Shown: positions 4,054-48,974, numbered from the stretch's first letter. The stretch: 64,000 bases of DNA from Chloroflexota bacterium (GCA_023485685.1 JAMCZK010000013.1:442-64441); one strand, 5' to 3'. The notes: generated by a model from the letters alone, not told the origin. Made by a program: numbers and translations.

Positions 4054-4667
4054 ATGGTTAGGATCGTGTTTTGGATTTCGACCGGTGTCTTGCTAACTGC
4101 GTGTAGCAACGCTGCCGTTCTGCCTTCACCTGAAGTGTTGGCGCCGACTGGAAACAATGTTAGCGAACCTATTACAATCGTGACTTCTACACCCGTCACC
4201 TTGATTTCCGAACTAACAGCTACCACCACCTACACCGTCCCTGATTTAGGTTATGCCTTTGATTATCCGGTTGCCTGGACCATTTCAGCATTGCCTGATG
4301 TGCCCGAATCTGCGGTGACTATCCATAGCTGGGATCCCGCAATGGCAACCGGTGACCGCCCGCAAAGCGAAGGCATCCCTGAGGGCGGCGAAAAGTTGGA
4401 CATCATCCCTCTGTCAATGTTTGACGTGGATTACGATGAGGCGCTACCTTGGTCCGTGAACAGAATGAGGGGAAGTCGTTCACCGAAGAGAACGTAACAT
4501 TGCCCAGCGGCGCTCCCGGCATCCTTTTCGTGTTCGAGCAAAACGAAGATGTCGGGAGTCGCTGTTTACTCGCCGAAGTTAACCATACTGCCATCCTGGC
4601 TTGCGGATTAGCCTGGAAATTCCAATACTTCGAATCGATTGCCTTTTCGTTACACCCGGCGCAGTAA
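4054..4667 (+). pseudogene. Small lipoprotein gene interrupted by one frameshift (or a local sequence error)
   Basis: ORF 4054-4497 starts with a signal peptide and lipobox (VLLTAC). ORF 4449-4667 in another frame continues as plausible protein (VREQNEGKSFTEENVTLPSGAPGILFVFEQ...). The two ORFs overlap around 4449-4497. Confidence 0.45.
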
Positions 4668-4750
4668 CCCCGCAATGAAGCTTATGGGGCTTTTTCGGCT
4701 GTTTGACAAGTAGCCGCGCCTCAGTTACACTAGTTGTCAGACAACTGAAT

Positions 4751-6136
4751 ATGTCTACTCTGCTTATCCGGCGTGCAACTCTATTAGCCACCTTTGATAA
4801 TCAGCGTCATGAGATTGCCGATGCTGGTCTATTCATTCGTGATGGCTTTATCCAACAAGTTGGCCCATCGGCTGAGCTTCCCAACACAGCCGACGAGGTG
4901 CTGGATTTAAGCGACCACGTCGTTCTCCCGGGTTTAATAAACACTCACCACCACTTTTATCAGACGCTGACCCGGGCAGTACCGGCAGCTCAGAACGCCA
5001 ACCTCTTCAATTGGCTCAAGACCTTGTATCCTATCTGGGCCAGGTTGACGCCCGAAGATATCTTCATCTCCACTCAGACAGCCTTGGCTGAGCTAGCCTT
5101 ATCAGGTTGTACCACCGCCTCAGACCATCTCTATGTCTTCCCAAACGGCTCCCGCTTGGAAGATGAAATCGAAGCAGCCGGCGAAGTAGGTCTGCGCTTG
5201 CATGCATCCCGCGGCTCGATGAGCGTCGGGGAAAGCCAGGGTGGCCTACCGCCAGACAGTGTGGTGGAAGATGAAGACACCATTCTTGCGGATAGCAGCC
5301 GCCTAATTGAAAGCCATCACCATGCCGAAGCAGGCGCGATGACCCAAATCGTGCTGGCTCCCTGTTCGCCTTTCAGCGTCTCGCAGGACTTGATGAAAGA
5401 GACAGCCAAGCTGGCCAGGCAGTATCAAGTTCATTTGCATACCCATTTGGCAGAAACGCAGGACGAAGAGCAATATACGCAGGAACATTTTGGATTGCGC
5501 CCGGTTGCCTGGATGGAGACTCTGGGCTGGCTGGGTGAAGATGTTTGGTATGCGCACTCGGTGCACGTGAACGACGAAGAAATTACCAAATATGCGGAGA
5601 TGGGCTGTGGTGTAGCTCATTGCCCTTCTTCCAATATGCGCCTGGCCTCCGGGATTGCCCCGGTCGCCCAGATGATGACGGCGGGCGTGAAAGTGGGCTT
5701 GGGCGTGGACGGATCCGCCAGCAATGATTCTTCGCACATGCTGGCTGAAGCGCGGCAGACGATGTTGCTTTCTCGGCTGGAGGCAGGATTGCGCGGCGCG
5801 TCCCTTTCGGGCAACGATGCACCCGAGCTGATGACCGCGCGCCAATCGCTGGAATTAGCCACGCGCGGCGGAGCAGGCGTGTTGGGGCGCGAGGACATCG
5901 GCTCGCTTGAAGTGGGGAAGTGCGCGGATTTCTTTGCAGTGAATCTCAACCAGTTGGATTTCGCCGGGGCGTTGCACGATCCCCTGGCAGCGCTGGTGTT
6001 TTGCGCGCCGGCTAAAGCGGATTACACAGTGGTCGGCGGCAAATTTGTCGTAAAGGAGGGCCAAATGCAAACCGTGGAGTTGCCTCGTTTGATGGAAAAA
6101 CACCATCGCGCGGCGGCGCGTTTGCTGGCAAATTAA
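4751..6136 (+). CDS. Metal-dependent amidohydrolase / aminohydrolase of the ATZ-TRZ / SsnA / 8-oxoguanine-deaminase-like branch
   Basis: HxH motif in LPGLINTHHHFYQTLTR, followed by HLHTHLAET, AHSVH and GVDGSASND. ATG 4751 (MSTLLIRRATLL...) is preferred over the upstream TTG 4703. Confidence 0.8.
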   Translation: MSTLLIRRATLLATFDNQRHEIADAGLFIRDGFIQQVGPSAELPNTADEVLDLSDHVVLPGLINTHHHFYQTLTRAVPAAQNANLFNWLKTLYPIWARLTPEDIFISTQTALAELALSGCTTASDHLYVFPNGSRLEDEIEAAGEVGLRLHASRGSMSVGESQGGLPPDSVVEDEDTILADSSRLIESHHHAEAGAMTQIVLAPCSPFSVSQDLMKETAKLARQYQVHLHTHLAETQDEEQYTQEHFGLRPVAWMETLGWLGEDVWYAHSVHVNDEEITKYAEMGCGVAHCPSSNMRLASGIAPVAQMMTAGVKVGLGVDGSASNDSSHMLAEARQTMLLSRLEAGLRGASLSGNDAPELMTARQSLELATRGGAGVLGREDIGSLEVGKCADFFAVNLNQLDFAGALHDPLAALVFCAPAKADYTVVGGKFVVKEGQMQTVELPRLMEKHHRAAARLLAN

Positions 6137-6137
6137 T

Positions 6138-6866
6138 ATGCTGAAAACCGGAATCCTCTCAAATCGTTTGCATTCAGAACTTGGAGAACTGATCGCCAAG
6201 ACAAATCCAGGCGAGCGCCTGCCCACTGAGCCCAAGTTGGCGGAGATGCTGGGTGTTTCGCGGGCGACGTTGCGCGAAGCAATGCGCACCTTCGAGACGC
6301 AGGGATTGATCCAGCGGCGTCAAGGGGTGGGCACGTTTGTGGTGCACCCCTCGAGCGTCATTGATACCGGCCTCGAGTTGCTCGAAAGCATCGAAAGTAT
6401 GGCGCAGCGCGTCGGTTTGCCGGTGCGTATGGGCGACTACGAGATCGAGCGCCGCGCGGCTGATCCTGAGGAACACCAGTTGCTGAAAGACTCTCAGGTG
6501 CTTCATGTTTCGCGCGTGATGGAAGCCGAAGGCCGTCCGATTGCCTATTTGGTGGACGTGTTGCCGGATAAGCTCTTCACTGAAGTCGAGTTTCGGCGTG
6601 AGTTTAGCGGCTCGGTGCTGGACTTGTTGCTCAAACAAAGTAGCTTGCGGGTGACCAGCGCGGATACCGAGATTCACGCGGAAGCCGCCGAAACGAATGA
6701 GGCGCGGGCGCTACATATGCAACGCGGCGACGTGGTGCTGCATTTCAAGTCCACCCTGTTTTCGATGGACGGCTCGGTGATCGATCTCTCCCGCTCGTAT
6801 TTCCTTCCCGGCTATTTCCGCTTCCATGTGATCCGCCGCGTCGAACCGCGGCGCCCAACGAGTTAA
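6138..6866 (+). CDS. GntR family (HutC/FarR-like, UTRA effector domain) transcriptional regulator
   Basis: Winged-HTH segment LPTEPKLAEMLGVSRATLREAMRTFETQGLI plus a ~150-aa C-terminal effector domain. The start lies 1 nt after the upstream stop. Confidence 0.85.
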   Translation: MLKTGILSNRLHSELGELIAKTNPGERLPTEPKLAEMLGVSRATLREAMRTFETQGLIQRRQGVGTFVVHPSSVIDTGLELLESIESMAQRVGLPVRMGDYEIERRAADPEEHQLLKDSQVLHVSRVMEAEGRPIAYLVDVLPDKLFTEVEFRREFSGSVLDLLLKQSSLRVTSADTEIHAEAAETNEARALHMQRGDVVLHFKSTLFSMDGSVIDLSRSYFLPGYFRFHVIRRVEPRRPTS

Positions 6867-6892
6867 TCCTTAATCCCAAACCCACGGAGGTT

Positions 6893-7849
6893 GTGATGCG
6901 CAGTTTTGCAGGACGAGATATTCTCTCTTTGAAAGATTTTGAACGCCAGGAATTTTTCCGCGTCTTTGAGATTGCTGAAGACCTGGAACATTTTGCCCGT
7001 GACCGCCAGAACACGGACTTGCTGAAGGAAAAGACGCTGGTCACCGCGTTCTACCAGCCCAGCACCCGCACACGTCTGGCCCACGAAGCGGCCATGATCC
7101 GTTTAGGCGGACAGGTAACCGGCTTCGCCGATGCCAAGATGACCCGTGCCGGCGATTTTTACCAGGAGTCGATCAAGGACACGGTAAAGATGCTGGAGTT
7201 CTACGGGGACGTGATTGTGATGCGCCATTTTCAGCAAGGGGCCCCGCATGAGGCGGCCAAATGGGCCAGTATCCCCATCATCAATGGTGGTGACGGCTGG
7301 GGCGAGCACCCGACCCAGATCCTGACCGACCTCTACACCGTGTGGAAGGAAAAGGGCACCATCGATGGGCTCAAATGGCTTGCCGTAGGGGATATGCGCA
7401 TGCGCACCATGCACTCCTTGGCTTATGGCCTGACTCAATTCGACTGCCCGATCACCTTCGTGGCGCCCCCAGACATGTCCCTGACCAAAGAGTTCAAGGA
7501 TGAATTAAAGCAGTACAGCCTCAACTATAAGGAAGCGGAACATGTCGAACAGGCCATCGCGGAGGCCGACGTCATTCTGGTGGAGCCGGTAGTGCAGCCA
7601 GATTACACGAAATCCCGCGACGAGCGTTCGGGCGACGTGAATTTGACGCCAGCCAACTACAAGATCACCCGCGAACTGCTATCGACAAAGGCTAAATCGG
7701 ACGCCATCTTGCTGCATTCCCTGCCGCGCATGGACGAGATTCCGCCCGATGTAGACATCACCCGCTGGTCGCGCTATTGGCAGGAAGCCTTTAATGGCGT
7801 AGTCATGCGCATGGCGCTTTTGGCGCTAGTTTTAGGCGCCACTGAATGA
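6893..7849 (+). CDS. Aspartate-carbamoyltransferase-like transcarbamylase, substrate uncertain
   Basis: Carbamoyl-phosphate site motifs STRTR, VMRH and EHPTQ, plus HSLPR in place of HPLPR. The canonical R-x-Q-x-E-R aspartate-binding segment is replaced by EPVVQPDY. Confidence 0.75.
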   Translation: MMRSFAGRDILSLKDFERQEFFRVFEIAEDLEHFARDRQNTDLLKEKTLVTAFYQPSTRTRLAHEAAMIRLGGQVTGFADAKMTRAGDFYQESIKDTVKMLEFYGDVIVMRHFQQGAPHEAAKWASIPIINGGDGWGEHPTQILTDLYTVWKEKGTIDGLKWLAVGDMRMRTMHSLAYGLTQFDCPITFVAPPDMSLTKEFKDELKQYSLNYKEAEHVEQAIAEADVILVEPVVQPDYTKSRDERSGDVNLTPANYKITRELLSTKAKSDAILLHSLPRMDEIPPDVDITRWSRYWQEAFNGVVMRMALLALVLGATE

Positions 7850-7861
7850 ATAATGAAGTTT

Positions 7862-7893
7862 GATAGTCAGGTAGTCGTGTAGTCGGATAGTCA
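7862..7893. repeat. Four tandem 8-nt units with a TAGTC core (left flank of four-helix-bundle cassette 1)
   Basis: Reads gatagtca ggtagtcg tgtagtcg gatagtca. It is the inverted counterpart of the array at 8192-8215. Confidence 0.8.
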
Positions 7894-7895
7894 AA

Positions 7896-8198
7896 ATGCC
7901 AAAGATAGAGCGCTTCGAAGACCTGCAAAGCTGGCAGAAAGCTCGTTTGCTAGTAAATCGGATCTATAAACTTACGCTGAATGGTTCATTTTCAAAAGAC
8001 TTTGCTTTGCGAGATCAGATTCGACGATCCGGTGGATCGGTGATGCACAACATAGCGGAAGGTTTTGACGCCGGTTCAGATCTTGAGTTCGTTCGCTTTC
8101 TTAAAATGGCTCGCCGATCGGCAAGTGAAGTTCAATCCCAGTTATATCTGGCAGTTGATCTCAACTACATCAGTCCTGAAGAAATGAATGTCGACTAA
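7896..8198 (+). CDS. Four-helix-bundle protein (23S rRNA intervening-sequence protein / Avd-like family)
   Basis: 100 aa. FEDLQSWQKARLL...IRRSGGSVMHNIAEGF...FLKMARRSASEVQSQLYLA matches the family signature. The ORF is visibly more AT-rich than its neighbours. Confidence 0.85.
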   Translation: MPKIERFEDLQSWQKARLLVNRIYKLTLNGSFSKDFALRDQIRRSGGSVMHNIAEGFDAGSDLEFVRFLKMARRSASEVQSQLYLAVDLNYISPEEMNVD

Positions 8199-8215
8199 TT
8201 GACTAGGAGACTAAG
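8192..8215. repeat. Three tandem 8-nt units with a GACTA core (right flank of cassette 1; inverted relative to 7862-7893)
   Basis: Reads cgactaat tgactagg agactaag. The Shine-Dalgarno AGGAGA of the next gene is embedded in the array. Confidence 0.75.
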
Positions 8216-8216
8216 C

Positions 8217-9200
8217 ATGCAGACTAACTTACGCGGTCGCGATTTCATTAGCGACCTGGACTTTAGCAAGGAAGAAATCGAAACCGTTTTAGATGTAGCC
8301 TGGGACTTGAAGCGCAAGCGCGCCCTTGGGGAGCCGCACGCTCTTTTACGAGACAAGGTGCTGGCCATGCTCTTTTTCTTTTCGAGCACGCGCACTCGCG
8401 GCTCTTTCGAAGCGGGTATGGCTCAATTGGGCGGGCACGCCGCCTTCATTGAATCTCGCACCACCCAGATTTCACATGGGGATACGGAAAAGGAAATGGG
8501 CCATATCTTCGGCCGATATTTCGATGGCATCGCCATCCGCCACGTGGAGTGGGGTGTGGGCAACCGCTACCTCAATCTGGTGGCAGAAGCCTCCGGGGTG
8601 CCGGTGCTCAACATGCAGTGCGAGATCTACCACCCCCACCAATGCCTGGCCGATCTCATGACCATGATGGAGAAGTTCAGCACTCGCAGCTTGCGCGGCA
8701 AGCGCGTAGTGGTTTCCTGGGCTTACGCCTCCAGCTACCTCAAACCTATTTCAGTTCCCCAATCGCTGATTTTGCAGCTGCCTCGCTTCGGCGCAGACGT
8801 TGTACTTTCCCACCCCAAGGGCTTTGAGTTGATGCCAGAGATCATGGATCAAGCCAAGTCGCTTTCCAAGCGATACAAGACTGGCTTTGATGTGGTCCAC
8901 GACATGAAGGAAGGCTTCGAGGACGCCGACGTGGTGTACGCGAAATCCTGGGGACCGCTACTGACGACTTCGGATGTCGCCAAAGGCAAAGAGTTGCAGG
9001 ACGCCAACAAAGATTGGATCACCGATGCCAAGAAGATGGCCGTTGCACACGACGATGCCATCTACATGCATCCACTTCCCGCGGACCGTGACGTGGAAAT
9101 CACCAGCGAAGTCCTGGACGGTCCACAATCGGTTGTGATCGACGAAGCTGAAAACCGCCTGCACGCGCAAAAGGCCGTGATGGCGTTAACGATGTGCTGA
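8217..9200 (+). CDS. Ornithine/aspartate transcarbamylase-fold enzyme (YgeW/OTCase-like), substrate uncertain
   Basis: Motifs STRTR and HPHQCLADL, MHPLPADRD (HPLP rather than the OTCase HCLP), and KSWG where OTCases have SMG. ATG 8217 follows AGGAGA; the track start at 8199 is less likely. Confidence 0.8.
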   Translation: MQTNLRGRDFISDLDFSKEEIETVLDVAWDLKRKRALGEPHALLRDKVLAMLFFFSSTRTRGSFEAGMAQLGGHAAFIESRTTQISHGDTEKEMGHIFGRYFDGIAIRHVEWGVGNRYLNLVAEASGVPVLNMQCEIYHPHQCLADLMTMMEKFSTRSLRGKRVVVSWAYASSYLKPISVPQSLILQLPRFGADVVLSHPKGFELMPEIMDQAKSLSKRYKTGFDVVHDMKEGFEDADVVYAKSWGPLLTTSDVAKGKELQDANKDWITDAKKMAVAHDDAIYMHPLPADRDVEITSEVLDGPQSVVIDEAENRLHAQKAVMALTMC

Positions 9201-37118: not shown

Positions 37119-37147
37119 TTGACTTGCCTAGCTGCGCTTGTTAAAAT
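37119..37147 (+). promoter_or_regulatory. Sigma-70-type promoter of the hrcA-grpE-dnaK-dnaJ operon
   Basis: TTGACT (37119-37124), a 17-nt spacer, then TAAAAT (37142-37147). Confidence 0.6.
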
Positions 37148-37162
37148 GGCTGAATGCTGCGT

Positions 37163-37189
37163 TTAGCACTCTCGACCAGAGAGTGCTAA
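37163..37189 (+). promoter_or_regulatory. CIRCE operator (HrcA binding site)
   Basis: Perfect TTAGCACTC-N9-GAGTGCTAA, 14 nt upstream of the hrcA ATG. Confidence 0.92.
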
Positions 37190-37203
37190 AACAAGCCGAA
37201 ATT

Positions 37204-38244
37204 ATGGAACGCCTTAGCGAACGCCAAAAACTGATCCTTGGATTGATTGTGAAGGATTACGTGGAATCCGCTCAGCCGGTCGGCTCGAAGCGCCTCGTCG
37301 AGCATTACGGCTTGGACGTCAGTTCGGCCACCGTGCGCAATGAGATGTTGGAACTCACCGAGAGCGGCTTCCTGCGCCAGCCGTTCACCTCCGCCGGTCG
37401 CGTGCCCACCGAAGAAGGCTTCCGCTTCTTCGTCGGAGAGCTGATGCACCGCCAGGAGCTGCCGGCTTCCACGAAACACACCATCAGCCACCAGTTCTAT
37501 CAGGCCCGCCATGAAGTTCATCAATGGATGCGGCTGGCAGCTTCCGTGCTGGCGGCCCAGGCCAAGGCGGCCTCTCTCATTACCACCCCTCAATCCCAAC
37601 AGGCACGCTTTAAACACTTGGAGCTCATTCTCACCGCCGGCCGCCAGGTGTTGATGGTGCTGGTCCTGGAGAGCGGCCAGGTGATCCAGCAAATGCTGGT
37701 GCTCAAAGACGCCTTCAGCCAGGAAAAACTGAGCAACACCGCCACTCAACTCAATGATCTGTTGCGCGGGTCGACAGCCGCCAACCTGACACCTCCTCCC
37801 GCAGACATGGGCACTTTGGCTAGCGAAATTTATCGGCTGATCAAAGGCGAGTTGCAATCCTTGGAAAAAGGCCTGGGCGGGGAGATCTATCATGATGGTT
37901 GGACCAACGTGCTCGCCGAGCCCGAATTTAGCGAATCCGATGCTGCCCAGCGCGCTCTGCGTGTTCTCGAAGAACGCCCGCTGCTGGACACGCTGCTGAC
38001 CCAAACCATGACCGGCGCCGAGATCGGCGGCGTGCAGGTACTCATCGGCGGCGAAGGCCGCTGGGAAGAATTGAATGACTTTTCGCTGGTGCTGGCGCGC
38101 TATGGCGCGCCCGAGGCCGCCAGTGGTTACGTGGGCGTGCTTGGCCCCATCCGCATGTCCTATGGCCGGGCTGTCTCCGCAGTGGATTATGTGGCCGGCC
38201 TGCTCAGCGAGATGGTGGCCGAATCCATGAGCGCTCACGATTAA
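37204..38244 (+). CDS. hrcA: Heat-inducible transcription repressor HrcA
   Basis: MERLSERQKLILGLIVKDYVESAQPVGSKRL...SSATVRNEM is the HrcA N-terminal wHTH. The track TTG 37138 lies upstream of the predicted transcription start. Confidence 0.93.
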   Translation: MERLSERQKLILGLIVKDYVESAQPVGSKRLVEHYGLDVSSATVRNEMLELTESGFLRQPFTSAGRVPTEEGFRFFVGELMHRQELPASTKHTISHQFYQARHEVHQWMRLAASVLAAQAKAASLITTPQSQQARFKHLELILTAGRQVLMVLVLESGQVIQQMLVLKDAFSQEKLSNTATQLNDLLRGSTAANLTPPPADMGTLASEIYRLIKGELQSLEKGLGGEIYHDGWTNVLAEPEFSESDAAQRALRVLEERPLLDTLLTQTMTGAEIGGVQVLIGGEGRWEELNDFSLVLARYGAPEAASGYVGVLGPIRMSYGRAVSAVDYVAGLLSEMVAESMSAHD

Positions 38245-38254
38245 ACAAGGAGAC

Positions 38255-38872
38255 TTGTTAGAGGCGGGTCCAAGACCGCCCATGATTATGATGAGCGATA
38301 AAAAAGAAGATATAGAAAAAGTAAAGGACTCGGGCGAAGAAGAAGCTCAGGCAGAAATGGTCTCCGAAGGCGGGAGCGTGGCGGAGCAACCCTCCGACGG
38401 CAAGAACGAATTGAGCGCCCTGCAAGAGAAACTCGCTGAAACCGAAGCCAAGGCTGCCGAACACCTGGATGGCTGGCAGCGCGCTCAGGCGGAGTTTTCC
38501 AATTACAAGAAACGCCTCGCCCGCGAGCAGGAGCAACAGGCCGCCGAGGTGCGCGGGCGCGTGCTCAAACGCTACCTGGAGATCGTCGACGATCTTGAGC
38601 TCGCCTTGAAAAACGCTCCGAAAGATGGCCCCGGCGCCGATTGGGCGCAGGGCATCGAATTGATTTACAAGAAACTCGTTTCCTTTTTGGAAAGCGAAGG
38701 GCTGACCCGCATGGATCCATTGGGTGAACCCTTCGATGCGAATCTGCATGAAGCTGTGACTCAAGAAGAAAGCCCCGACCATGAAAGTGGCACCATTATC
38801 GAAGTGCTGCGGCCGGGTTACCTGCTGGCTGAGCGCGTGTTGCGCCCGGCCTCTGTAAAAGTTGCGAAATAA
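38255..38872 (+). CDS. grpE: Nucleotide exchange factor GrpE
   Basis: An acidic N-terminus, a coiled coil, then the C-terminal GrpE signature (PFDANLHEAV...GYLLAERVLRPASVKV). The start is uncertain; ATG 38282-38291 are alternatives. Confidence 0.9.
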   Translation: MLEAGPRPPMIMMSDKKEDIEKVKDSGEEEAQAEMVSEGGSVAEQPSDGKNELSALQEKLAETEAKAAEHLDGWQRAQAEFSNYKKRLAREQEQQAAEVRGRVLKRYLEIVDDLELALKNAPKDGPGADWAQGIELIYKKLVSFLESEGLTRMDPLGEPFDANLHEAVTQEESPDHESGTIIEVLRPGYLLAERVLRPASVKVAK

Positions 38873-38888
38873 TTGAGGAGATATAAAC

Positions 38889-40799
38889 ATGGCAAAAATC
38901 ATCGGCATTGACCTGGGCACCACCAATTCGGTTGGCGCCGTCATGGAAGGCGGCGAACCCGTCGTAATCCCTACTGCGGAAGGCGAACGTCTCGTCCCTT
39001 CTGTGGTAGCCATCAACAAGAACGGTGAACGCATGGTGGGGCGTCAAGCGCGCAACCAGGCGGTGGTGAATCCGGAAAATACGATCTATTCCATCAAGCG
39101 CTTTATGGGACGCAAATACAACGATCCCGAAACCCGCAAGGCGCTTGATGTAGTTCCCTATCACATCGAAAAGGCCGCCAACGAAGGCATCGAAGTCGAG
39201 TTGGCTGGCAAGCGTTACACCCCGCCGGAGATCTCGGCCATGATCCTTGGCAAGATCAAGGCCGACGCCGAAGCCTATCTCGGCGAACCTGTGACCCAGG
39301 CCGTGATCACCGTCCCGGCCTACTTCAACGATGCCCAGCGCAACGCCACGAAAGATGCCGGCAAGATTGCCGGCCTCGAAGTGTTGCGCATCATCAACGA
39401 GCCCACGGCTTCCTCTCTCGCCTACGGACTCGACAAAAAGAAAAACGAGGTCATCGCCGTGTACGACCTGGGCGGTGGCACCTTCGATATTTCCATCCTC
39501 GATGTGGGCGATGGCGTCTTTCAGGTGCGCTCCACCAGCGGCGACACCTTCCTGGGCGGAGATGATTTCGACCAGCGCGTGATCAATTACCTGGCCGAAG
39601 AATTCCAAAAGGAGCAGGGCATCGACCTTCGTAAAGATCGCCAATCCCTGCAACGTTTAAAGGAAGCTGCCGAGAAAGCCAAGATCGAGCTTTCTTCCCT
39701 GCAGCAGACCGAGATCAACCTGCCCTATATCACGGCTGACGCCTCCGGCCCCAAGCACCTGGTCACCAAGCTGACCCGCGCCAAGCTGGAGCAGCTCACC
39801 GGCGATCTCATCGAGCGCACCCTGGGCCCGGTCAAGCAGGCCCTCAAGGACGCCGACCTGAAACCCAGCGATATCAATGAGATCGTACTGGTGGGCGGCA
39901 TGACCCGTATGCCCGCCGTGCAGGAAGCCGTGAGGAAGACTTTCGGCAAGGAACCGCACAAAGGCGTGAACCCCGATGAAGTGGTTGCTATCGGCGCGGC
40001 CATCCAGGCAGGTGTTCTTGGCGGCGACGTGAAGGACATCCTGCTGCTCGACGTGACCCCGCTGACCCTGTCCATCGAGACCCTGGGCGGCGTTTCCACA
40101 CCGCTGATTGAGCGCAATACCACCATCCCTACCCGCAAGAGCCAGATCTTCTCCACCGCCAGCGATAACCAGAACCAGGTGGAAGTGAACGTTCTGCAGG
40201 GCGAGCGCCCCATGGCCGTGGATAACAAGTCCCTGGGCCGCTTCAACCTGGACGGCATTCCGCCCGCGCCGCGCGGCATCCCGCAGATCGAAGTGACCTT
40301 CGACATCGACGCCAACGGCATCCTCAACGTGACCGCTTCCGATAAGGCTACCGGGCGCAGCCAGCACATCACGATCACGGCCTCCTCCGGCCTCTCCGAG
40401 GATGAGGTCGAGCGCATGCGTAAGGACGCCGAAGCCCACGCCGCCGAAGACAAGAAGCGCAAGGACTTGGTCGAGGCGCGTAATACGGGCGACTCCGCGG
40501 CGTACACCGCTGAAAAGACAGTGAAGGATCTGGGCGACAAGGTTTCCGCTGAGCGCAAGAAGGAAATCGAAGACGCGGTTGCCAAACTGCGTGGTTTGCT
40601 GCCCGGTGAAGATGCCGCTGCCATCAAATCCGCTACCGAGGCTCTAATGGAGATTGTCCAGAAGCTGGGCGCCGAGGCTTACCAGGCCGGAGCCCAGGGT
40701 CCTCAAGCCGGTGGCGGGCAGCCCGGAGGCGAGCAAAAACCCGGTGGCGATGGCAAGGGCGGCGAAGATGTGGTGGAGGGGGAGTTTAAAGAGGCGTAA
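38889..40799 (+). CDS. dnaK: Molecular chaperone DnaK (Hsp70)
   Basis: 636 aa. Motifs [18 protein letters not shown] and [10 protein letters not shown], with a Gly-rich C-terminus. Confidence 0.98.
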
Positions 40800-40804
40800 T
40801 TCCA

Positions 40805-40868
40805 TATTGCGTATTGCGTATTACGTAATACGCAATACGTAATACGTAATACGTAATACGTAATACGA
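40805..40868. repeat. Palindromic array of nine 7-nt units (ATTGCGT x2, ATTACGT | AATACGC, AATACGT x4, AATACGA) in the dnaK-dnaJ spacer
   Basis: Perfect 30-nt palindrome at 40810-40839, centred on tacgta. It extends to about 20 bp per arm if one G-U pair is allowed, and extra right-arm units follow. Confidence 0.85.
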
Positions 40869-40874
40869 GTCACC

Positions 40875-41999
40875 TTGCCTAGTAAACGCGACTATTACGA
40901 CATTCTCGGTGTTCACCGTTCCGCCTCGCCGGAGGAGATCAAATCATCCTTCCGGCGTTTGGCGCGCCAGTATCACCCTGACGTCAATAAATCCCACGAC
41001 GCCGAAGAGCGCTTTAAGGAAATCAACGAAGCTTACGCGGTATTAGCCGACCCGCAGAAGCGCGCCGCCTACGACCGTTACGGCCACGCCGGTCTGAATG
41101 GTTTTGGCGGCATGCCCGATTTCACTAACGTGGACCTGGGCGACATCTTCGAAGAATTGTTCGGCTTCGGCTTTGGCCGCCGCTCCGGGCGCCAGCAGCG
41201 CAATGCGCCCCGCCGCGGCGCCGATCTGCAATACAACTTGACCCTCGATTTCGAAGAAGCCGTATTCGGCGTTGAGAAAGAGGTGGAATTCACCCGCGAC
41301 GAAGTCTGCAAGCGCTGCGATGGCGAAGGCGCCGAGCCCGGTACGACTAAATCGAACTGTCCCACCTGCGGCGGCAGCGGCGAAGTGCGCGCTTCGCGCC
41401 AAACGATTTTTGGTTCCATGGTGCAGGTGACCACTTGTCCTAACTGCCGCGGCACGGGCACCATCATTGGCTCTCCCTGCAAAGTTTGCAATGGTCGTGG
41501 CTTGGAACGAAAAACAGTAAAAAAGAAAGTGGATATCCCCGCGGGTGTTGACAGCGGTACTCAAGTACGGCTGAATGGGGAAGGGCAGCCCGGTCTCAAC
41601 GGCGGCCCGCAAGGCGATCTGTACATCGCGCTCAATGTGCGCCCGCACAAATATTTCCATCGCCGCGACGATGACATTTTGCTGGACCTGGACATTAACG
41701 TGGCGCAGGCTACCTTAGGCGGCGAGGTGGAAGTGCCTACTGTGGACGGACCCGCCGAACTCAGCATCCCCGTCGGCGTACAGCCCGGCAAAGTATTGCG
41801 CATGCGCGGCAAAGGCGTGCCGCACCTGCGCGGCTCCGGCCGCGGTGACCAATTGGTCATGGTCAATGTCGCCATCCCGCACAAACTTAACGCCGAACAG
41901 CGCAAGCTCTTCGAGCAGCTCGCCGCCACCATGGGCACCGAAGCTCACCCGCGCGAAAGCGGATTCTTGGACCGATTGAGAGAAGTGTTGGGGGGATAA
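40875..41999 (+). CDS. dnaJ: Co-chaperone DnaJ (Hsp40)
   Basis: J-domain (DYYDILGV...HPD), a G/F region and four CxxCxGxG zinc motifs. TTG start. Confidence 0.95.
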   Translation: MPSKRDYYDILGVHRSASPEEIKSSFRRLARQYHPDVNKSHDAEERFKEINEAYAVLADPQKRAAYDRYGHAGLNGFGGMPDFTNVDLGDIFEELFGFGFGRRSGRQQRNAPRRGADLQYNLTLDFEEAVFGVEKEVEFTRDEVCKRCDGEGAEPGTTKSNCPTCGGSGEVRASRQTIFGSMVQVTTCPNCRGTGTIIGSPCKVCNGRGLERKTVKKKVDIPAGVDSGTQVRLNGEGQPGLNGGPQGDLYIALNVRPHKYFHRRDDDILLDLDINVAQATLGGEVEVPTVDGPAELSIPVGVQPGKVLRMRGKGVPHLRGSGRGDQLVMVNVAIPHKLNAEQRKLFEQLAATMGTEAHPRESGFLDRLREVLGG

Positions 42000-42075: not shown

Positions 42076-42771
42076 CTATGGGAAAAGTCTCCAAAAACTT
42101 ACTGGGTTGCCGGACGGTACAAAGATCGTGCCTAAAGCCACGTTGTTACAGCCTGCCATCGTACGGAAGGTGTTGTCAAATGAATAGAGAGTCCCGTTTT
42201 CTATGATGGACAAACGGTTGCCATTCTCATCAACATCATAATCATTGTCCCAATTTGCACTTTCCATTGAGATCCTCCACCCTTCAATTGTTTTGCCCTC
42301 GATTGTCGCAGTTGTATACTTGGCCGAGTTCACAATCCCTATATGGCCTGCACCATAGCCGATATTGGTAATCAATCGCGAATAAGTTCCATCTCTGAAT
42401 TGCACATAAACTCTCGCCTCGGATTGCATAATAATTACATCGCCAGCTTGCGCGGTGGCGGTGTGTGAGCCAGTTGGATCAGGAGTTTCCAAAGTGCCTC
42501 CAACCTGATATCGCTGCAGGCCACTGTTCTTGGGAATAACCGAATCATTCGACCAATAATCAGCAGTGGCCATTTCCTCGGCGGTATCCCAACTGTGCCC
42601 TGCAATGGCGGGACGAGCCCCACCAATATCATAGAACAGCTTGTTTACCACGTATTCAACACACTGACACCGAGCGGCATCTTGTTTGGCATTTACGTTT
42701 GATGGGATTAAAAGTAAAAGTAATAATGCAATCAATATTACAGTTTTGGTCGGTTTTATTGTATTTTTCAT
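42076..42771 (-). CDS. Secreted CHAP-like cysteine amidase/peptidase domain protein (tentative)
   Basis: Signal peptide, then a Cys context ARCQCVEYVV and a His context GAGHIGIV preceded by GDVIIM, as in CHAP domains. The gene is visibly AT-rich relative to its neighbours. Confidence 0.5.
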   Translation of the reverse strand: MKNTIKPTKTVILIALLLLLLIPSNVNAKQDAARCQCVEYVVNKLFYDIGGARPAIAGHSWDTAEEMATADYWSNDSVIPKNSGLQRYQVGGTLETPDPTGSHTATAQAGDVIIMQSEARVYVQFRDGTYSRLITNIGYGAGHIGIVNSAKYTTATIEGKTIEGWRISMESANWDNDYDVDENGNRLSIIENGTLYSFDNTFRTMAGCNNVALGTIFVPSGNPVSFWRLFP

Positions 42772-43020: not shown

Positions 43021-43049
43021 TTGACATAGAACAACAGTTCTATTGTTAT
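43021..43049 (+). promoter_or_regulatory. Promoter of the PolB cassette
   Basis: Perfect TTGACA (43021-43026), a 17-nt spacer, then TGTTAT (43044-43049). A 7-bp inverted repeat tctctag-cc-ctagaga (43049-43064) abuts the start codon. Confidence 0.5.
43027..43042 (+). promoter_or_regulatory. LexA (SOS) box of the Gram-positive / Dehalococcoides type
   Basis: TAGAAC-AACA-GTTCTA is a perfect GAAC-N4-GTTC palindrome. It occupies the -35/-10 spacer. Confidence 0.7.
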
Positions 43050-43063
43050 CTCTAGCCCTAGAG

Positions 43064-43654
43064 ATGGCTAGCCAGGCGATCATCCAAATTCCCGGCCCGT
43101 TTGCGTTTTCCAGCGTGCGCCAGATGGTGCCGCTGAGCCAGGGATCGGTATATCTATTCCAGGGGGATAGCGACGTCCTGCAGGCTGCCATGCAGGAGTT
43201 TATCGACCGCCTGGGGATGCGCGGGGCAGTCCAAGTGGTCGTCGGCGGCAACCGCATCTCCTTCGACCATTTGCCGCTGATTCTTGGGGACCAGATCGGC
43301 AGGGTCTACGAGATCATGGACCGCATCCTGGTTTCGCGTGCGGAAACCTGCTATCAAATGCAGGATGTGCTTGCTGCTTTGGAGCCCAGCCCAATACCCA
43401 TCGTGATCACGGACATGCTGGAATCCTTCTATGAAGAAGATCTGACCCCTCAAGAAGTAACTCTCTTGTTGCAAAAGTGCATCAGGCACATTCATAAACT
43501 TAGTGAGGCAGCGCCCGTTCTCATCAGTGCGTGCGGCGATCCTTCTCGTCCCAAGCTGCTTGAGTTGATCGAACAAAACTCGGACGAGCGCTTTTACTTC
43601 CAGCCCTTTGATCATGCCGATGATCTGGTTCAGGTGAATTTGCCGGGAATCTGA
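43064..43654 (+). CDS. RecA-superfamily-like protein lacking a P-loop (ImuA/SulA-like architecture, tentative)
   Basis: 196 aa from ATG 43064; the track TTG 43043 lies inside the -10 region. VYLFQGDSDVLQAAM sits where a Walker A would be, and a Walker-B-like strand IPIVITDMLESF follows. The fold call comes from pattern reading only. Confidence 0.45.
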   Translation: MASQAIIQIPGPFAFSSVRQMVPLSQGSVYLFQGDSDVLQAAMQEFIDRLGMRGAVQVVVGGNRISFDHLPLILGDQIGRVYEIMDRILVSRAETCYQMQDVLAALEPSPIPIVITDMLESFYEEDLTPQEVTLLLQKCIRHIHKLSEAAPVLISACGDPSRPKLLELIEQNSDERFYFQPFDHADDLVQVNLPGI

Positions 43655-43655
43655 A

Positions 43656-44012
43656 ATGGGTCATACGCTTTCGACTGTCACTCAGAATTATCAGCGTTTC
43701 TTGACATACGTGCGGCCCTTCCGACGGGCATTGCGCAAGTCCGACCAGTTGGCGCTGGATGCCTTGCTCGATGAAGCCAATCAGCATTTGCCCGCCGCCG
43801 GTTACGCGGCCAACCTGCTGCCTGGGATCGCCTTCTTGCTTTCCTTGTTGCTGGAAAAACACAAACAGGCAGTGCAGCTTGAAGCTGAACTCGAGAACCA
43901 ACGAATGGATTTCAGGCGTGAGCTGGAAAAAAATCGGAAGGAATTTGCCGCCGAACTTGCCAAACTGCGCACAGAGATCTTCTTGCTTAAGGGCAGCCCC
44001 AATGGCCACTGA
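43656..44012 (+). CDS. 118-aa helical/coiled-coil protein, no recognised family
   Basis: Starts 1 nt after the upstream stop, and its stop overlaps the PolB start by 11 nt. The C-terminal half (QLEAELENQRMDFRRELEKNRKEFAAELAKLRTE) is coiled-coil-like. Confidence 0.6.
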   Translation: MGHTLSTVTQNYQRFLTYVRPFRRALRKSDQLALDALLDEANQHLPAAGYAANLLPGIAFLLSLLLEKHKQAVQLEAELENQRMDFRRELEKNRKEFAAELAKLRTEIFLLKGSPNGH

Positions 44013-46323
44013 ATATTCAGGCTGGATTATGGATGTTTACGCCGACAAAGGTAAGGGCGCCGTGGTCTGGTTCGTTTGCGAGGATGGGCGCCGTCTGCGG
44101 TTTATCCAGGATCTGGCGATCACCTTTTATGTAGGTGGTGATCAGCACGACCTGCGACGATTCTGTGAATACCTAACCAGGTCCCGCTTGCGATTTGAGT
44201 ACATCGAACGCGAGCACCTTTTCCATGGAATGATTGATGTGATCGCCATCCCCGTTCGCAACGGCGCATTGCAGCGATCTTTGTTCCGCAAATTGCATAA
44301 TGTGTTTCCGGATTTGGATTACTACAATGCGGATATTGCTTTGCCGGTTCATTACTTCGTCATCACCAAAACATTTCCCCTCGCCTTCTCCAAAATCTGG
44401 GTGGACGGTCAAAATCGAATTTCCAAAATTTCGGTGCAAGACGACAAATGGGATCTCAAACCCAAGCTCCCTGAACACTTAGTGCGAAAGATGGACGTGG
44501 AACCCACCAGCTCACCCCTTAAATCCTTGCCCTCATCGATCCGCGTCACTTTCGGCAACCAAACAGAAACTATCAGCACAGCAGATCCTGCGAAGTTGCT
44601 GAGGCATTTCGGTGAGTGGATCGAAGTCTATGATCCGGACATCGTTCGCACTCGTTATGGGGATGCCTGGATGTTTCCTTACCTTTTTTCCATCGCGAAG
44701 ACAACCAATATTCCTTTCAACCCCAATCGCGACAAGTCGCGGCAACCTCTACGGATTGAAGCTAATCAGTTTGAAAGCTACGGCCACCTGGTGCATCGGG
44801 ACCAGCAGACTTTGCTTTTTGGTCGCCTTCACCTGGATCCGCAGAACTCAATGGCCTTCAAAGACTGGGGGCTCTTGGGCACTTACGAGACCGCACGCTT
44901 GAGCAATCTTCCGATCCAAAACGCGGCGCGGCGCAGCGCGGGCGGCGCCTTTGTGGGCATGCAGGTGACTGCATCGCTGGAGAAGGGCATCCTGATCCCG
45001 ATTCGCAAAGAACAGCGCGAGCGCTTTAAGAGCGCCACACAAATGATCGCTGCCGATAACGGTGGCGTCATCTTCAAACCGATCACTGGCCTGCATGCCA
45101 ATGTTGCGGAGATCGATTTCTTTTCCATGTATCCGCATATCATGACGGGTTGGAATATTTCCGCGGAAACCGTGGGTGGGATGGGTGCAAACACTCGAAT
45201 TGCGCCAGGCATTGGTGTGCCGATAAACCAGGATGAACCCGGCATTGTGGCGGATGTGCTCAGGCCGATCCTGGCCAAACGTGCCGCGGCTAAAGACCTG
45301 CTGGAAACTGGCAACACTCAAGGCTATGACGAAAATTACCTTCAGACAGCTTACGAATTCTTGAAGGGCCTAGGCTGGGTCTCGTATGGCTATCAAGGCT
45401 TCAGCGGCAACCGCATCGGCAGCATCGAAGCCCACGAAGTGATCAATGCCGTAAGCCGCGATGTGATTCTGCTTGCCAAGGAGGCCGCTGAGGACGCCGG
45501 CTTTGAAGTGCTGCATATCTATGTGGATAGCTTATTTGCAAAAGTGGAAGGAAGAAGTAGAGCGCAAATAAACGAATTGTTGGCCGAGATCAAGAATCGC
45601 ACCGGCTTGAAGGTGGATCTGGAGGGCATACTGCGCTGGATTGCCTTCCTGCCGTCCAAGCAGAACGAGAGCCTGCCTGTGCCGAATTGCTATTTTGGCG
45701 TCTTTGAAAGCGGAGAACTGAAATGCCGCGGCATCATGGCTCGCCGGGGTGACACACCCTTATACATTGCTGATGTGCAAATGGCTGCGATCCGCCTGAT
45801 GGCTGCAAAACAGGATTTAGTCGAACTGCGTAAGCTCATCCCGGAATTAGTGGAGTTCTTTAAATCACGTTACAAAAAGATCGCAAATGGGGAGGTTCCG
45901 CTGGAAAAGCTGGTGATCTCGCAAACATTAAGCCGCAACATCGAAGATTTTAGGGTTATCTCTCCCGCCAGTGCAGCTGCCCGCCAATTGGAGAAAGAAG
46001 GCAAGGTTATCCGTGCCGGGCAAAATGTGGAATTCATTCGTGTGCGGGATGTGCCACATTCGCTTTCCTGGCACCTGGTGCGCGAAGACCAAAAGCCGAA
46101 TCTAGACACGGACTGGTATTGTGAGCAGCTATTGCGTGCTGCAGATGAGGTGCTTTCGCCGCTTGGGGTGCCAAAGGATGTTCTATTAGCCTGGTTTACT
46201 GACCAAGGCGCCTACTGGATACCTGAGGATTATGTGGACAATACGCCTATCACCTGGCCATTGTTGGAAGTCATTAAACGACGATCGAGGATCAGCAATA
46301 TTCGGGTGCCCGCGAAGTTATAG
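44002..46323 (+). CDS. Divergent family-B DNA polymerase with degenerate 3'-5' exonuclease motifs
   Basis: 773 aa from ATG 44002. N-terminus IMDVYADKGKGAVVWF resembles PolB. Motif A is EIDFFSMYPHI, motif B KGLGWVSYG and motif C IYVDSLF (not YGDTDS), with CRGIMARRGD downstream. Exo I is MDVEP, Exo II GDAWMFPYL and Exo III YETAR. Confidence 0.85.
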   Translation: MATEYSGWIMDVYADKGKGAVVWFVCEDGRRLRFIQDLAITFYVGGDQHDLRRFCEYLTRSRLRFEYIEREHLFHGMIDVIAIPVRNGALQRSLFRKLHNVFPDLDYYNADIALPVHYFVITKTFPLAFSKIWVDGQNRISKISVQDDKWDLKPKLPEHLVRKMDVEPTSSPLKSLPSSIRVTFGNQTETISTADPAKLLRHFGEWIEVYDPDIVRTRYGDAWMFPYLFSIAKTTNIPFNPNRDKSRQPLRIEANQFESYGHLVHRDQQTLLFGRLHLDPQNSMAFKDWGLLGTYETARLSNLPIQNAARRSAGGAFVGMQVTASLEKGILIPIRKEQRERFKSATQMIAADNGGVIFKPITGLHANVAEIDFFSMYPHIMTGWNISAETVGGMGANTRIAPGIGVPINQDEPGIVADVLRPILAKRAAAKDLLETGNTQGYDENYLQTAYEFLKGLGWVSYGYQGFSGNRIGSIEAHEVINAVSRDVILLAKEAAEDAGFEVLHIYVDSLFAKVEGRSRAQINELLAEIKNRTGLKVDLEGILRWIAFLPSKQNESLPVPNCYFGVFESGELKCRGIMARRGDTPLYIADVQMAAIRLMAAKQDLVELRKLIPELVEFFKSRYKKIANGEVPLEKLVISQTLSRNIEDFRVISPASAAARQLEKEGKVIRAGQNVEFIRVRDVPHSLSWHLVREDQKPNLDTDWYCEQLLRAADEVLSPLGVPKDVLLAWFTDQGAYWIPEDYVDNTPITWPLLEVIKRRSRISNIRVPAKL

Positions 46324-46350: not shown

Positions 46351-47268
46351 GTGCCCACTGAACCCACTTCCTGGCTGCGCATCTCACTTAGAGTCGACCC
46401 CGAGCTTGCCGAGGCCGTCTCCGAGGTACTCGCCCGCTACATCCCCGGCGGCGTGGTCATCGAGAGCACTGCCATTGAAGCGGACGCCGAAGACATAGGC
46501 CGCGCCGTTGGGCCTCTGCGTGTTTCTGGCTACATCCCCGCGGATGCATACCTAGAAGATACGCGAGCCAACATCGAGCAAGGGTTGCGCTATTTAGCCA
46601 TGATCCAGCCCATCCCCGAACCCAGTTACGAAAGCATCCAGGAGCAAAACTGGATGGAAAGCTGGAAGGAACACTACAGACCGCTGCCCGTCGGCGAGCG
46701 CTTGCTGATTCTGCCTGCCTGGATCCAAATGGAGACTGGTGGCCGCGTGCCCATCCGCATCGAGCCCGGCATGGCCTTCGGTACCGGAGTGCACCCCACG
46801 ACGCAGCTCAGCCTGCAGCTCCTCGAGCACTGCGTGCAGCCGGGCAACTCCGTCATCGACGTGGGCTGCGGTTCCGCCATCCTGGCGATCGCCGCCGCCA
46901 AGCTGGGCGCCGCGCCCGTGGTCGCTGTCGACATTGACTCGCAAGCTTTGGATAACGCGCGCCACAACGTGCAATTGAATAATGTTGACATCGAAATAGG
47001 CCAAGGCTCGGTTGCCGAATTGTTGAAAGGTCAATTTGGATTGCAGCAAGCTGATGTCGTGGTAGCGAACATCCTCGCGAAGGTGCTCATTCGCCTTTTA
47101 GATCAAGAGTTGGCGAGGTTAATGAACCCGAAGGGAATGCTGATCCTCTCCGGGATTCTGGCAGAACAGGAGGATGAGATGAAAAAGAGTTTGGAAAAGG
47201 CAAAGCTACAAATTATTGCAGAGCGTAGGATTGAAGATTGGTTGGGGCTTGCAGTTCGATTTGGGTAG
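46351..47268 (+). CDS. prmA: Ribosomal protein L11 methyltransferase
   Basis: 305 aa with a GTG start. PrmA N-domain, the HPTT motif (GTGVHPTTQL) and the SAM motif VIDVGCGSAILAIAAAKLGA. Confidence 0.9.
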   Translation: MPTEPTSWLRISLRVDPELAEAVSEVLARYIPGGVVIESTAIEADAEDIGRAVGPLRVSGYIPADAYLEDTRANIEQGLRYLAMIQPIPEPSYESIQEQNWMESWKEHYRPLPVGERLLILPAWIQMETGGRVPIRIEPGMAFGTGVHPTTQLSLQLLEHCVQPGNSVIDVGCGSAILAIAAAKLGAAPVVAVDIDSQALDNARHNVQLNNVDIEIGQGSVAELLKGQFGLQQADVVVANILAKVLIRLLDQELARLMNPKGMLILSGILAEQEDEMKKSLEKAKLQIIAERRIEDWLGLAVRFG

Positions 47269-47291
47269 GGGCGGGGTTACCCCGCCCTGTG

Positions 47292-47648
47292 TCACGCCAT
47301 GTCTTTGCCCGTCGGCTGCCAAAGCTCGATAGCATTTCCCTCAGGGTCAGACAGCCGTGCGAATCGCCCGTTTGGATATTCATTTGGATCTGGCTCGACC
47401 TCAATCCCAGCGGTTTGCAATTGCTTGACCATCGCGTCTAGGTCGCGCACCCGAAAGTTAACCATCCACCTTTTCTTGGTTTTCCGAAATGATAGGTATC
47501 GTTCGGAAATGGTTGGAAGATGTAGGCCCCGCTTCTTGCGTCCAGGGCTGATCGTCATAGCTTTGTGGCGTCAGCGCCACCCCGAGATGGTCAACGTACC
47601 ATTTCGCTAAGCCGACTGGATCCCGCCGATCCCAGCTACCTTTTCCAT
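47292..47648 (-). pseudogene. VOC/glyoxalase-family gene with two compensating frameshifts
   Basis: ATG 47646-47648 gives MEKVAGIGGI and then a stop. A shifted frame reads GLAKWYVDHLGVALTPQSYDDQPWTQEAGPT. The original frame resumes as ...WMVNFRVRDLDAMVKQLQTAGIEVEPDPNEYPNGRFARLSDPEGNAIELWQP. Confidence 0.55.
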
Positions 47649-47664
47649 ACCCGCTCCTGTGAAT

Positions 47665-48240
47665 TTACCTTTGCATCCAGCGTTCCAAGCCTTCGGGCGG
47701 CTGGTATGCAGCCAGCGCGTCCAGCAATTCCTCTGGGCGTTCGGCCTGGCTGTATAACTTCTGGTGCTCCCAAAACGTGAAACCTTCTTTGTTGGCATGC
47801 GCCAAGAATTTCAAGAGATCATCGAAGTAGGAGTACACGTTCAATAACCCAACGGGTTTGCGATGAAGCCCGATCTGAGCCCAGGTCAATGTTTCGAACA
47901 GTTCCTCCAGCGTGCCGAATCCTCCGGGAAGCGCCACGAACGCGTCGGCCAGTTCGGCCATGCGCGCCTTGCGAGTATGCATGCCATTCACCAACTCCAG
48001 CCGCGTCAACCGGCTGTGCGCCATGCTGGGCTTGTTGAAGTGTTCGGGCAGCACGCCGATTACCTCGCCACCCGCGTCCAACACGGCATCAGCCACCGCG
48101 CCCATCAACCCCGTGCTGCCGCCGCCAAAGATCAGTTGCAACCTGCGCCCCGCCATCACTTCACCCATATGGCGCGCCACCTCGATGTATTTGGCGCCGA
48201 CCTCGTCGGAGGAACCGCAGAACACGCAAACAGCCTTCAT
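47665..48240 (-). CDS. LOG-family (TIGR00730) nucleotide phosphoribohydrolase
   Basis: 191 aa. Motifs GGGSTGLMG and PGGFGTLEE. Confidence 0.9.
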
Positions 48241-48974
48241 TCCGTTTCTCTTTCTTCTGCTTCTTCCAGTAATTGCTTGTCCTTCTTGCTCAATTCCGCG
48301 TGCTCTAATAAATCGGGTCTGCGCTGGGCGGTGCGCAGCAAGGACTGTTGCCGCCGCCAGCGCACGATGCGGCCGTGATCACCGGATTTTAGAACTTCAG
48401 GAACGGCCCAGCCCCGAAATTCAGGCGGACGCGTGTAGTGTGGGTGCTCCAGTAGGCCGCTTGCGTGTGAATCGGTGATGGCACCGGTCGGGTCACCCAA
48501 AGCGCCTGGAAGCAGCCTTGCTACCGAGTCAATAATGAGTAGTGCGGGCAATTCACCCCCAGTAAGCACATAATCGCCCACCGAAATTTCATCGCTAACC
48601 AAGTGCTCGCGTACTCGCTCGTCCACGCCTTCATAGCGGCCGCAAATCAGCGCAAAGTGCTCGTGTGCGCTCAGTTCTTGAGCCACTTGTTGGTTGAAAA
48701 TCCGGCCTTGAGGACTCAGTAGGATAATGGGAATCACTGGCTCGGCGCCCAAGACTCCCTCCACGGCGGCGAAGATGGGTTCGGGTTTCATCACCATGCC
48801 CCCTCCGCCGCCGTAGGGCTCATCGTCGGTGACCTGGTGCTTGTCGGTGGCGTAATCGCGGATATTGTGCAATTTCACTTCCAGCAATCCCGCCTGCCGG
48901 GCGCGGCCCAGGATGCTGGCATCCAGATAAGGTGGGAACAATTCAGGGAATAGCGTGAACACATCAATGCGCAT
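48237..48974 (-). CDS. trmD: tRNA (guanine37-N1)-methyltransferase
   Basis: 245 aa. TrmD pattern [11 protein letters not shown]...[10 protein letters not shown]...[12 protein letters not shown]...[11 protein letters not shown]. Confidence 0.95.

Follow-up and report, generated by a model that had tools for sequence, protein, structure and literature searches.

Makarova, Krupovic and Koonin described in 2014 a conserved operon that combines an 'inactivated' family-B DNA polymerase, PolB2/Dpo2, with a small helical protein (arCOG07300) and an inactivated RadA, and they noted bacterial copies with lexA in the same operon (PMC4104785). In 2025, Timinskas, Timinskas and Venclovas renamed the two partners PPB2 and iRadA, modelled a PolB2:iRadA:PPB2(3) heteropentamer and named it the PolB2 mutasome (PMC11791011). 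In bacteria iRadA-PPB2-PolB2 is the sole gene order, a single archaea-to-bacteria transfer has been inferred, the lexA gene is enriched beside the operons, and in some of the complexes iRadA or PolB2 has a clamp-binding motif (PMC11791011). Dpo2 is an active polymerase without exonuclease that extends mismatches (PMC8764526). Here we analysed a cassette of three genes at positions 43021-46323 of a 64,000-nucleotide stretch from a Chloroflexota bacterium (GCA_023485685.1, JAMCZK010000013.1:442-64441), the whole of which is called the window. Very probably, the cassette is a bacterial iRadA-PPB2-PolB2 mutasome operon of archaeal derivation, with a LexA-gated promoter and an error-tolerant polymerase.

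A preliminary description, made from the sequence alone, had proposed that an SOS-type operator, a RecA-superfamily partner and an exonuclease-dead PolB follow the logic of a mutasome at this locus, and had known of no description of such a cassette. The proposed logic agrees with the published family; the supposed novelty is refuted by both papers and by a supplement that lists the locus itself. Searched with the motif C peptide and the N-terminus, Supplementary data file 1 of PMC11791011 contained an exact match to the window polymerase. The matching row (Chloroflexota bacterium; PolB2 MCL5428619.1, iRadA MCL5428617.1, PPB2 MCL5428618.1) assigns the operon to group '1a (iRadA-PPB2-PolB2)' with the motif 'HIYVDSLFA / 505 / YVD' and records no LexA or SRAP neighbour. 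Clearly, the system was already known, and with this row the locus was already catalogued. Among cultured Anaerolineae, the same supplement lists operon carriers in Ornatilinea apprima, Longilinea arvoryzae, Pelolinea submarina, Brevefilum fermentans and a Bellilinea sp.

In the literature searched, we met with no mention of a LexA box embedded in the promoter of a bacterial PolB2 operon; the papers report only the enrichment of lexA genes nearby. The new part is likely to be the wiring in cis: an archaeal-derived PolB2 mutasome placed under a LexA-type operator that is embedded in the promoter spacer, across Anaerolineales and in PolB2 operons of about 35% identity, even where no lexA is adjacent, together with an iRadA tail that may carry a degenerate beta-clamp-binding motif. 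A promoter-embedded operator is a modest addition to a known system. Its conservation is direct cis evidence that a translesion system of archaeal derivation has been wired into the bacterial SOS response, for which the earlier bacterial evidence was mainly nearby lexA genes. The promoter elements, the three genes and the iRadA tail lie as follows.

43021-43026, + strand: -35 hexamer TTGACA, read from the sequence
43027-43042, strandless: LexA-type operator TAGAAC-AACA-GTTCTA (GAAC-N4-GTTC class), filling the promoter spacer, assigned from sequence and conservation
43044-43049, + strand: probable -10 hexamer TGTTAT, weak in the window, placed by alignment with the -10 hexamers of orthologs
43064-43654, + strand: iRadA, inactivated RadA/Rad51 homolog of 196 amino acids without N-terminal domain and without Walker A, retaining a Walker-B-like IVITD117
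43631-43651, + strand: C-terminal tail of iRadA, QVNLPGI (residues 190-196), candidate degenerate beta-clamp-binding motif
43656-44012, + strand: PPB2 (partner of PolB2; arCOG07300 / Pfam DUF8156), 118 amino acids, with an N-terminal MGHT arm
44002-46323, + strand: PolB2, family-B DNA polymerase of the archaeal PolB2/Dpo2 clade, exonuclease-dead, 773 amino acids

The three open reading frames (ORFs) are on the same strand in the order iRadA-PPB2-PolB2, and the sizes and tight spacing reported earlier, with a 1-nt gap followed by an 11-nt overlap, were confirmed; the genes are translationally coupled. A genome scan based on the polymerase found eight Anaerolineales loci (66-88% identity) and one archaeal relative. 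All three genes keep the same order in seven of the eight Anaerolineales loci (L001-L003 and L005-L008), and the remaining one, L004, starts inside the operon and holds PolB2 only. The same order was also seen in L130 and L131, which were found via the most divergent homologs of ORF1 (about 50-56% identical to it), and in the distant locus L031. Conservation of the gene neighbourhood and its box, which had been put forward as a check, was thus found on both counts, the operator being present in 10/10 Anaerolineales loci.

ORF1 had been read as a RecA-like protein with GDSD where GxxGK[TS] is expected, a Walker-B-like IVITD and a resemblance to ImuA or SulA. Sequence comparison gave little: Pfam and NCBIfam returned nothing significant, a PDB sequence search gave no match, and close homologs were confined to Anaerolineales. 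Sub-threshold Proteasome, DUF1843 and OmpH matches, obtained with Pfam and NCBIfam on ORF1 and ORF2, were dismissed as noise. When 1.84 billion representatives were searched with a profile built from 44 ORF1 orthologs, 698 relatives came up at E ≤ 1e-3, and 2 of 10 such relatives that were scanned had weak Pfam Rad51 matches. Using an AlphaFold (AF2) model of ORF1 (predicted local distance difference test score, pLDDT, 80.6; predicted template-modelling score, pTM, 0.78) as the Foldseek query, we obtained RAD51/DMC1/RadA-type chains for all of the top 50 matches, at E ~1e-6, probability 1.0 and query template-modelling scores of 0.53-0.66. RecA, SulA and KaiC were absent from these 50, and an ImuA, SulA or KaiC identity of ORF1 was rejected on the ground that all 50 best structural matches are of the Rad51/DMC1/RadA type.

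In the model, the strand at residues 29-34 (SVYLFQ) runs into the helix at 36-53 through a one-residue junction. Since strand and helix meet almost directly where GDSD replaces the P-loop, the loop has been physically deleted, whereas the RadA-like segment 'SRAETCYQ...IVITD117' is kept. As modelled, ORF1 is a Rad51/RadA ATPase-core fold without the N-terminal helical domain and without the ATP-binding residues. The RecA-superfamily fold, the GDSD and the Walker-B-like strand of the preliminary description were therefore upheld, and its comparison with ImuA and SulA was not.

The C-terminal tail of iRadA is disordered in the model (pLDDT <50). Among the 44 orthologs, Q190 is invariant, hydrophobic positions are kept, and the tail follows the pattern Q-x-x-[LFM]-x(0,1)-[GRW]-[FILM]. 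The supplementary table of PMC11791011 lists no clamp motif for this operon. We hypothesise that the tail may be a degenerate beta-clamp motif overlooked by the published profile search.

ORF2 had been described as a helical protein of no recognisable family. The helices were borne out by an AF2 single-sequence model, which has three of them (residues 3-23, 28-44 and 48-111). The protein does have a family: PPB2 / arCOG07300 / DUF8156, published as a three-helix protein of ~90-120 amino acids with a conserved N-terminal MGRT arm (PMC11791011). Pfam and NCBIfam searches on ORF2 gave nothing significant with a Pfam set that lacks PF26485 (DUF8156), and PPB2 orthologs carry a precomputed match to that very entry. 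An MG[HR]T start is invariant across the orthologs, being MGHT in the window and MGRT in the distant operons L031 and L107. Foldseek with the single-sequence model found no match at E <1 in the PDB and did not recover the resemblance to sigma factors that the authors report. By the MG[HR]T arm, the three helices and the DUF8156 match of its orthologs, ORF2 is PPB2.

Four of the 10 scanned matches to the ORF1 profile (P0065, P0079, P0106 and P0084; 295-321 amino acids) are iRadA-PPB2 fusions, in which the coiled-coil C-terminal half is a fused PPB2 domain and an internal MGHT marks the junction. Such fusions, already noted in PMC11791011, lend independent support to a physical interaction of the two small proteins.

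ORF3 matches Pfam DNA_pol_B at 4e-22. Its best NCBIfam matches are archaeal-type PRK05761 models (3e-92), with the Pol II model at just 4.5e-10, and a profile search against the PDB likewise gave archaeal PolB at 1e-70 and E. coli Pol II at 9e-13. The motifs were aligned with a Pfu Pol sequence that matches the PDB alignment apart from three residues of motif A (YLDYKSLYPSI in PDB 2jgu, YLDFRALYPSI in the sequence used). The elements so located in PolB2 are listed here.

44659-44685, + strand: degenerate Exo II, GDAWMFPYL, aligned to Pfu GDSFDFPYL; FD is replaced by WM, and the catalytic Asp by Met224
44725-44742, + strand: NRDKSR loop (residues 242-247), the PolB2-specific D(K/R) motif, preceded by the strand IPFNP (IPFNPNRDKSR, residues 237-247)
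45115-45141, + strand: motif A, DFFSMYPHI, catalytic Asp372 kept, aligned to Pfu motif A
45514-45540, + strand: motif C, HIYVDSLFA, aligned to Pfu YIDTDGLYA; DxD has become YVD

In the polymerase domain, D372, F373, Y377 and P378 of motif A are invariant, the archaeal relative included. Motif B reads KGLGWVSYG against KLLANSFYG in Pfu, so that its Asn is replaced. Motif C is altered as had been proposed, and the alignment refines the reading: the first Asp alone is lost, and the second, D509, is invariant, as are H505 and V508. Conservation extends to K455, to the YG pair and to RRGD, along with D372 and D509. In the D(K/R) loop, R243 is invariant and the D/E-K/R pair is conserved; the element ahead of this motif is predicted to bind iRadA (PMC11791011).

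The exonuclease domain had been judged proofreading-dead from Exo II and Exo III. Loss of the Exo II aspartate in GDAWMFPYL was confirmed by the alignment of Met224 to the Pfu Asp; in orthologs, the residue is M, L or I. For Exo III, the loss stands and the evidence first cited for it does not: YETAR had been placed out of register and aligns with Pfu ~329-333, downstream of Exo III, and the segment that should contain the motif (residues 254-294) is shortened by ~45 residues and cannot be aligned to Pfu. Exo III is thus deleted or unalignable. Exo I, which had not been scored, is ambiguous. D165-V-E167 lies on the expected strand but, in the profile alignment, two residues out of register, and the acidic pair is not conserved, relatives having E-x-E, D-x-K, T-L-Q or S-L-T. 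Of two placements of Exo I, on 'VQDDKW' by MAFFT and on 'LRxMxVE' by the profile hidden Markov model, the latter was preferred, and the register is still uncertain.

Two further observations concern the polymerase. Near its C-terminus (residues ~748-760, window ~46240-46290) there is a conserved P-[IL]-x-x-P-L-[LF], and ortholog L006 ends at '...SPLF'; this segment might serve as a second peptide, of a non-canonical type, for binding a partner or the clamp. The archaeal relative (L009, a Thermoproteota archaeon, positions 1609-3951) is a PolB2-like gene, 30% identical, with IVD at motif C. No iRadA or PPB2 gene was found among the ORFs of ≥70 amino acids in this 8.5-kb locus; the gene is a case of a PolB2 relative that stands alone.

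The promoter region of the operon reads CTTGACA-TAGAAC-AACA-GTTCTA-TTGTTATCT. As the preliminary description had it, TTGACA is followed directly by a perfect 6+4+6 palindrome, and this 12-base palindrome is the sole site of its kind in the 64 kb, even when up to two mismatches are allowed. The 8-base core GAAC-N4-GTTC by itself is not significant in the window (1 observed, 0.95 expected). The palindrome occupies the 17-nt spacer between -35 and -10, so the operator overlaps the core promoter; it fits the consensus of the GAAC-N4-GTTC class. The ATG of ORF1 is at 43064, close to the -10, which makes the leader very short.

We aligned the DNA upstream of the operon in the window with that of the seven bacterial loci whose sequence includes it. 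Across these eight regions the TTGACA -35 is invariant, and so is TTGACATAG[A/C]A[C/T]-N4-GTTCTATTAT[C/G]AT, whereas the N4 centre and the DNA outside the promoter and palindrome have fully diverged. Constant arms with a variable centre and variable flanks are the pattern expected of a dimeric-repressor operator within a promoter. The two divergent loci keep promoter and palindrome with small changes beside the -35 and in the -10: TTGACA-CAGAAC-AAAC-GTTCTA-TTATGAT in L130 and TTGACT-G-TAGAAC-TATT-GTTCTA-TTACAAT in L131. At the position of TGTTAT in the window, seven orthologs have TATCAT or TATGAT as the -10. A consensus promoter scan of the window did not call the operon promoter, because TGTTAT has no A at position 2. 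Compared with the seven orthologs the -10 is degraded, which suggests lower basal or induced expression in this genome.

Employing tblastn, we found neither lexA nor recA on the 64-kb contig or in the orthologous loci. For this reason, metagenome contigs were scanned for the 14-base palindrome ATAGAAC-N4-GTTCTAT, which yielded at least 120 loci. Among the metagenome matches listed, the box lies directly upstream of a LexA homolog in 11/120 loci, and several of these lexA promoters share the exact layout CTTGACA-ATAGAAC-N4-GTTCTAT followed by the -10. Exact-sequence look-ups of box-bearing LexA proteins returned 'transcriptional repressor LexA' from Syntrophales, Kiritimatiellia and Paceibacterota. 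In homolog searches, one box-bearing LexA was 75-83% identical to LexA of metagenome-assembled genomes of Chloroflexota/Dehalococcoidales, and a second lineage gave matches without organism names. The same metagenome scan found two distant PolB2 operons with the box directly upstream of iRadA: in L031, PolB2 is 35% identical to that of the window over the full length, and in L107, 34% identical over the first 61 residues, where the locus ends.

The LexA of Dehalococcoides reportedly also recognises GAAC-N4-GTTC. In Gram-positive bacteria this is the established LexA motif (PMC3323433). By its cis element, LexA control of the operon is strongly indicated; that LexA binds here, and that DNA damage induces the operon in this organism, we infer.

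This analysis shows the anatomy of the operon, the folds of the small proteins, the states of the motifs and a conserved operator that also occurs on lexA promoters; for complex formation and extender activity, the mechanism proposed here would follow the family. Judging from homology to Sulfolobus Dpo2 and from the AlphaFold models in the literature, a trimer of PPB2 would assemble with single copies of PolB2 and iRadA (1:1:3). PolB2 would dock on iRadA, a Rad51-fold protein predicted to be unable to bind ATP, via a loop ahead of the DK motif that mimics the Rad51 oligomerisation motif, and one of the PPB2 subunits would insert its N-terminal MG[HR]T arm near the active site of the polymerase. 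With its two metal-binding aspartates D372 and D509 kept and presumably no working proofreading exonuclease, PolB2 most likely extends mismatched or lesion-opposed primer ends in translesion synthesis. LexA bound to the palindrome in the 17-nt spacer would occlude RNA polymerase, and RecA-stimulated cleavage of LexA after DNA damage would release the operon.

Upstream of the operon the window contains hrcA-grpE-dnaK-dnaJ (37138-41999), and downstream prmA, a LOG-like gene and trmD (46351-48974). One more gene lies between dnaJ and the operon, where GC drops to 43-47% from the 55-63% of the flanks.

42076-42771, - strand: secreted CHAP-domain-like protein of 231 amino acids (Pfam CHAP 1.3e-4, under the curated cut-off)

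In L002, dnaJ abuts the operon directly and no CHAP-like gene is present, so the gene in the window looks like a recent insertion. At the distant locus L107 (about 770-8280), ~7.6 kb of phage head genes lie between the LexA-box-controlled iRadA and PPB2-PolB2; according to PHROGs they include a portal (1e-23) as well as a protease/major-head fusion (7e-26). Either a misassembly or a piece of prophage within an SOS operon could account for this.

Several points weigh against an SOS-controlled PolB2 mutasome at this locus. Exo I may keep D165 and E167, in which case the loss of exonuclease depends on Exo II and Exo III; the -10 of the window is poor; the organism's cognate repressor is not seen, with no lexA or recA on the contig or in the orthologous loci; the box-bearing lexA is tied to Chloroflexota solely via a Dehalococcoidia-like LexA, not an Anaerolineales LexA; and the architecture of the complex is a prediction from published AlphaFold models. 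The missing lexA and the predicted nature of the link between LexA and the operator also allow another reading, that the palindrome serves a different dimeric repressor (e.g. of XRE or MarR type) and the operon stands outside the SOS regulon. MarR_2 is enriched near PolB2 operons in the published table as well, and a recognisable lexA adjoins the palindrome in only ~9% of the listed metagenome loci. For one gene per genome, however, 11 of 120 listed sites is a very large enrichment; several lexA promoters have the same TTGACA-box-(-10) design, the motif is an established one for Gram-positive LexA (PMC3323433), and lexA itself is often in the PolB2 operon of other bacteria. We regard a repressor other than LexA as unlikely, and LexA as the better candidate.

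The remaining two alternatives concern the polymerase. According to the original 2008/2014 hypothesis, a view taken in PMC4104785, PolB2 would be catalytically dead and the complex would act in replication initiation or damage sensing without synthesising DNA, with which the loss of the first DxD Asp (YVD) and of the motif B Asn would agree. Yet Sulfolobus Dpo2 polymerises robustly with IID for DxD (PMC8764526), and targeted mutagenesis depends on it (PMC11791011); in the window enzyme, D372, D509, K455, YG and RRGD are all conserved. A dead enzyme is very improbable here. A PolB that replicates a mobile element of which it is part (casposon, pipolin or prophage) might be suggested by the low-GC CHAP gene just upstream and by the phage head genes inside the operon at L107. 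No integrase, Cas1, terminal repeats or tRNA target flanks the cassette, though, and the CHAP gene is missing in L002. The same housekeeping neighbours recur in several orthologs (dnaK-dnaJ in L002; prmA and trmD at P0052, a divergent one) and speak against a mobile element as the context; the polymerase also lacks proofreading, unlike the PolBs of replicative elements. With no borders and with neighbours common to several orthologs, this alternative was rejected as having hardly any probability.

The PolB2 mutasome operons of PMC4104785 and PMC11791011 share with the window operon the gene order, the tight coupling, a Rad51-fold partner without ATPase motifs or N-terminal domain, a three-helix partner with an MG[HR]T arm, and a PolB with xxD for DxD, a dead exonuclease and a D(K/R) loop. 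The window operon differs in that its arm is MGHT rather than MGRT and no lexA, SRAP or DUF72 gene is adjacent; the authors called no clamp motif for it, whereas a conserved Q-x-x-L-like iRadA tail is present. With ImuA-ImuB-DnaE2 only the logic is common: LexA controls a multi-gene cassette that encodes a RecA-superfamily protein devoid of ATPase function, an adaptor, and a polymerase that is error-prone and does not proofread. None of the components are orthologs. DnaE2 belongs to family C and the window polymerase to family B, the middle protein is a helical protein of 118 amino acids that is predicted to form trimers and not a Y-family-like ImuB, and the RecA-like protein is of the RadA/Rad51 lineage, with no ImuA match in Pfam or NCBIfam.

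E. coli Pol V (UmuD'2C-RecA) is likewise an SOS-induced mutasome whose polymerase binds a recombinase-family protein via an oligomerisation-like motif and in which the N-terminal arm of the small subunit reaches the active site (PMC11791011). Its catalytic subunit is of the Y family, its RecA is active and comes from the filament, and UmuD' is a dimer as opposed to the PPB2 trimer. E. coli Pol II (polB) is also a LexA-regulated family-B translesion extender; it is, however, a single-subunit, stand-alone enzyme with active proofreading, intact Exo I-III and DxD, and only distant kin of the window PolB. Eukaryotic Pol zeta (Rev3-Rev7(2)-Pol31-Pol32) has other accessory subunits, no Rad51-like partner and eukaryotic regulation; it resembles the PolB2 mutasome in that it is a family-B polymerase of several subunits whose exonuclease is inactivated and that acts as an extender (PMC11791011).

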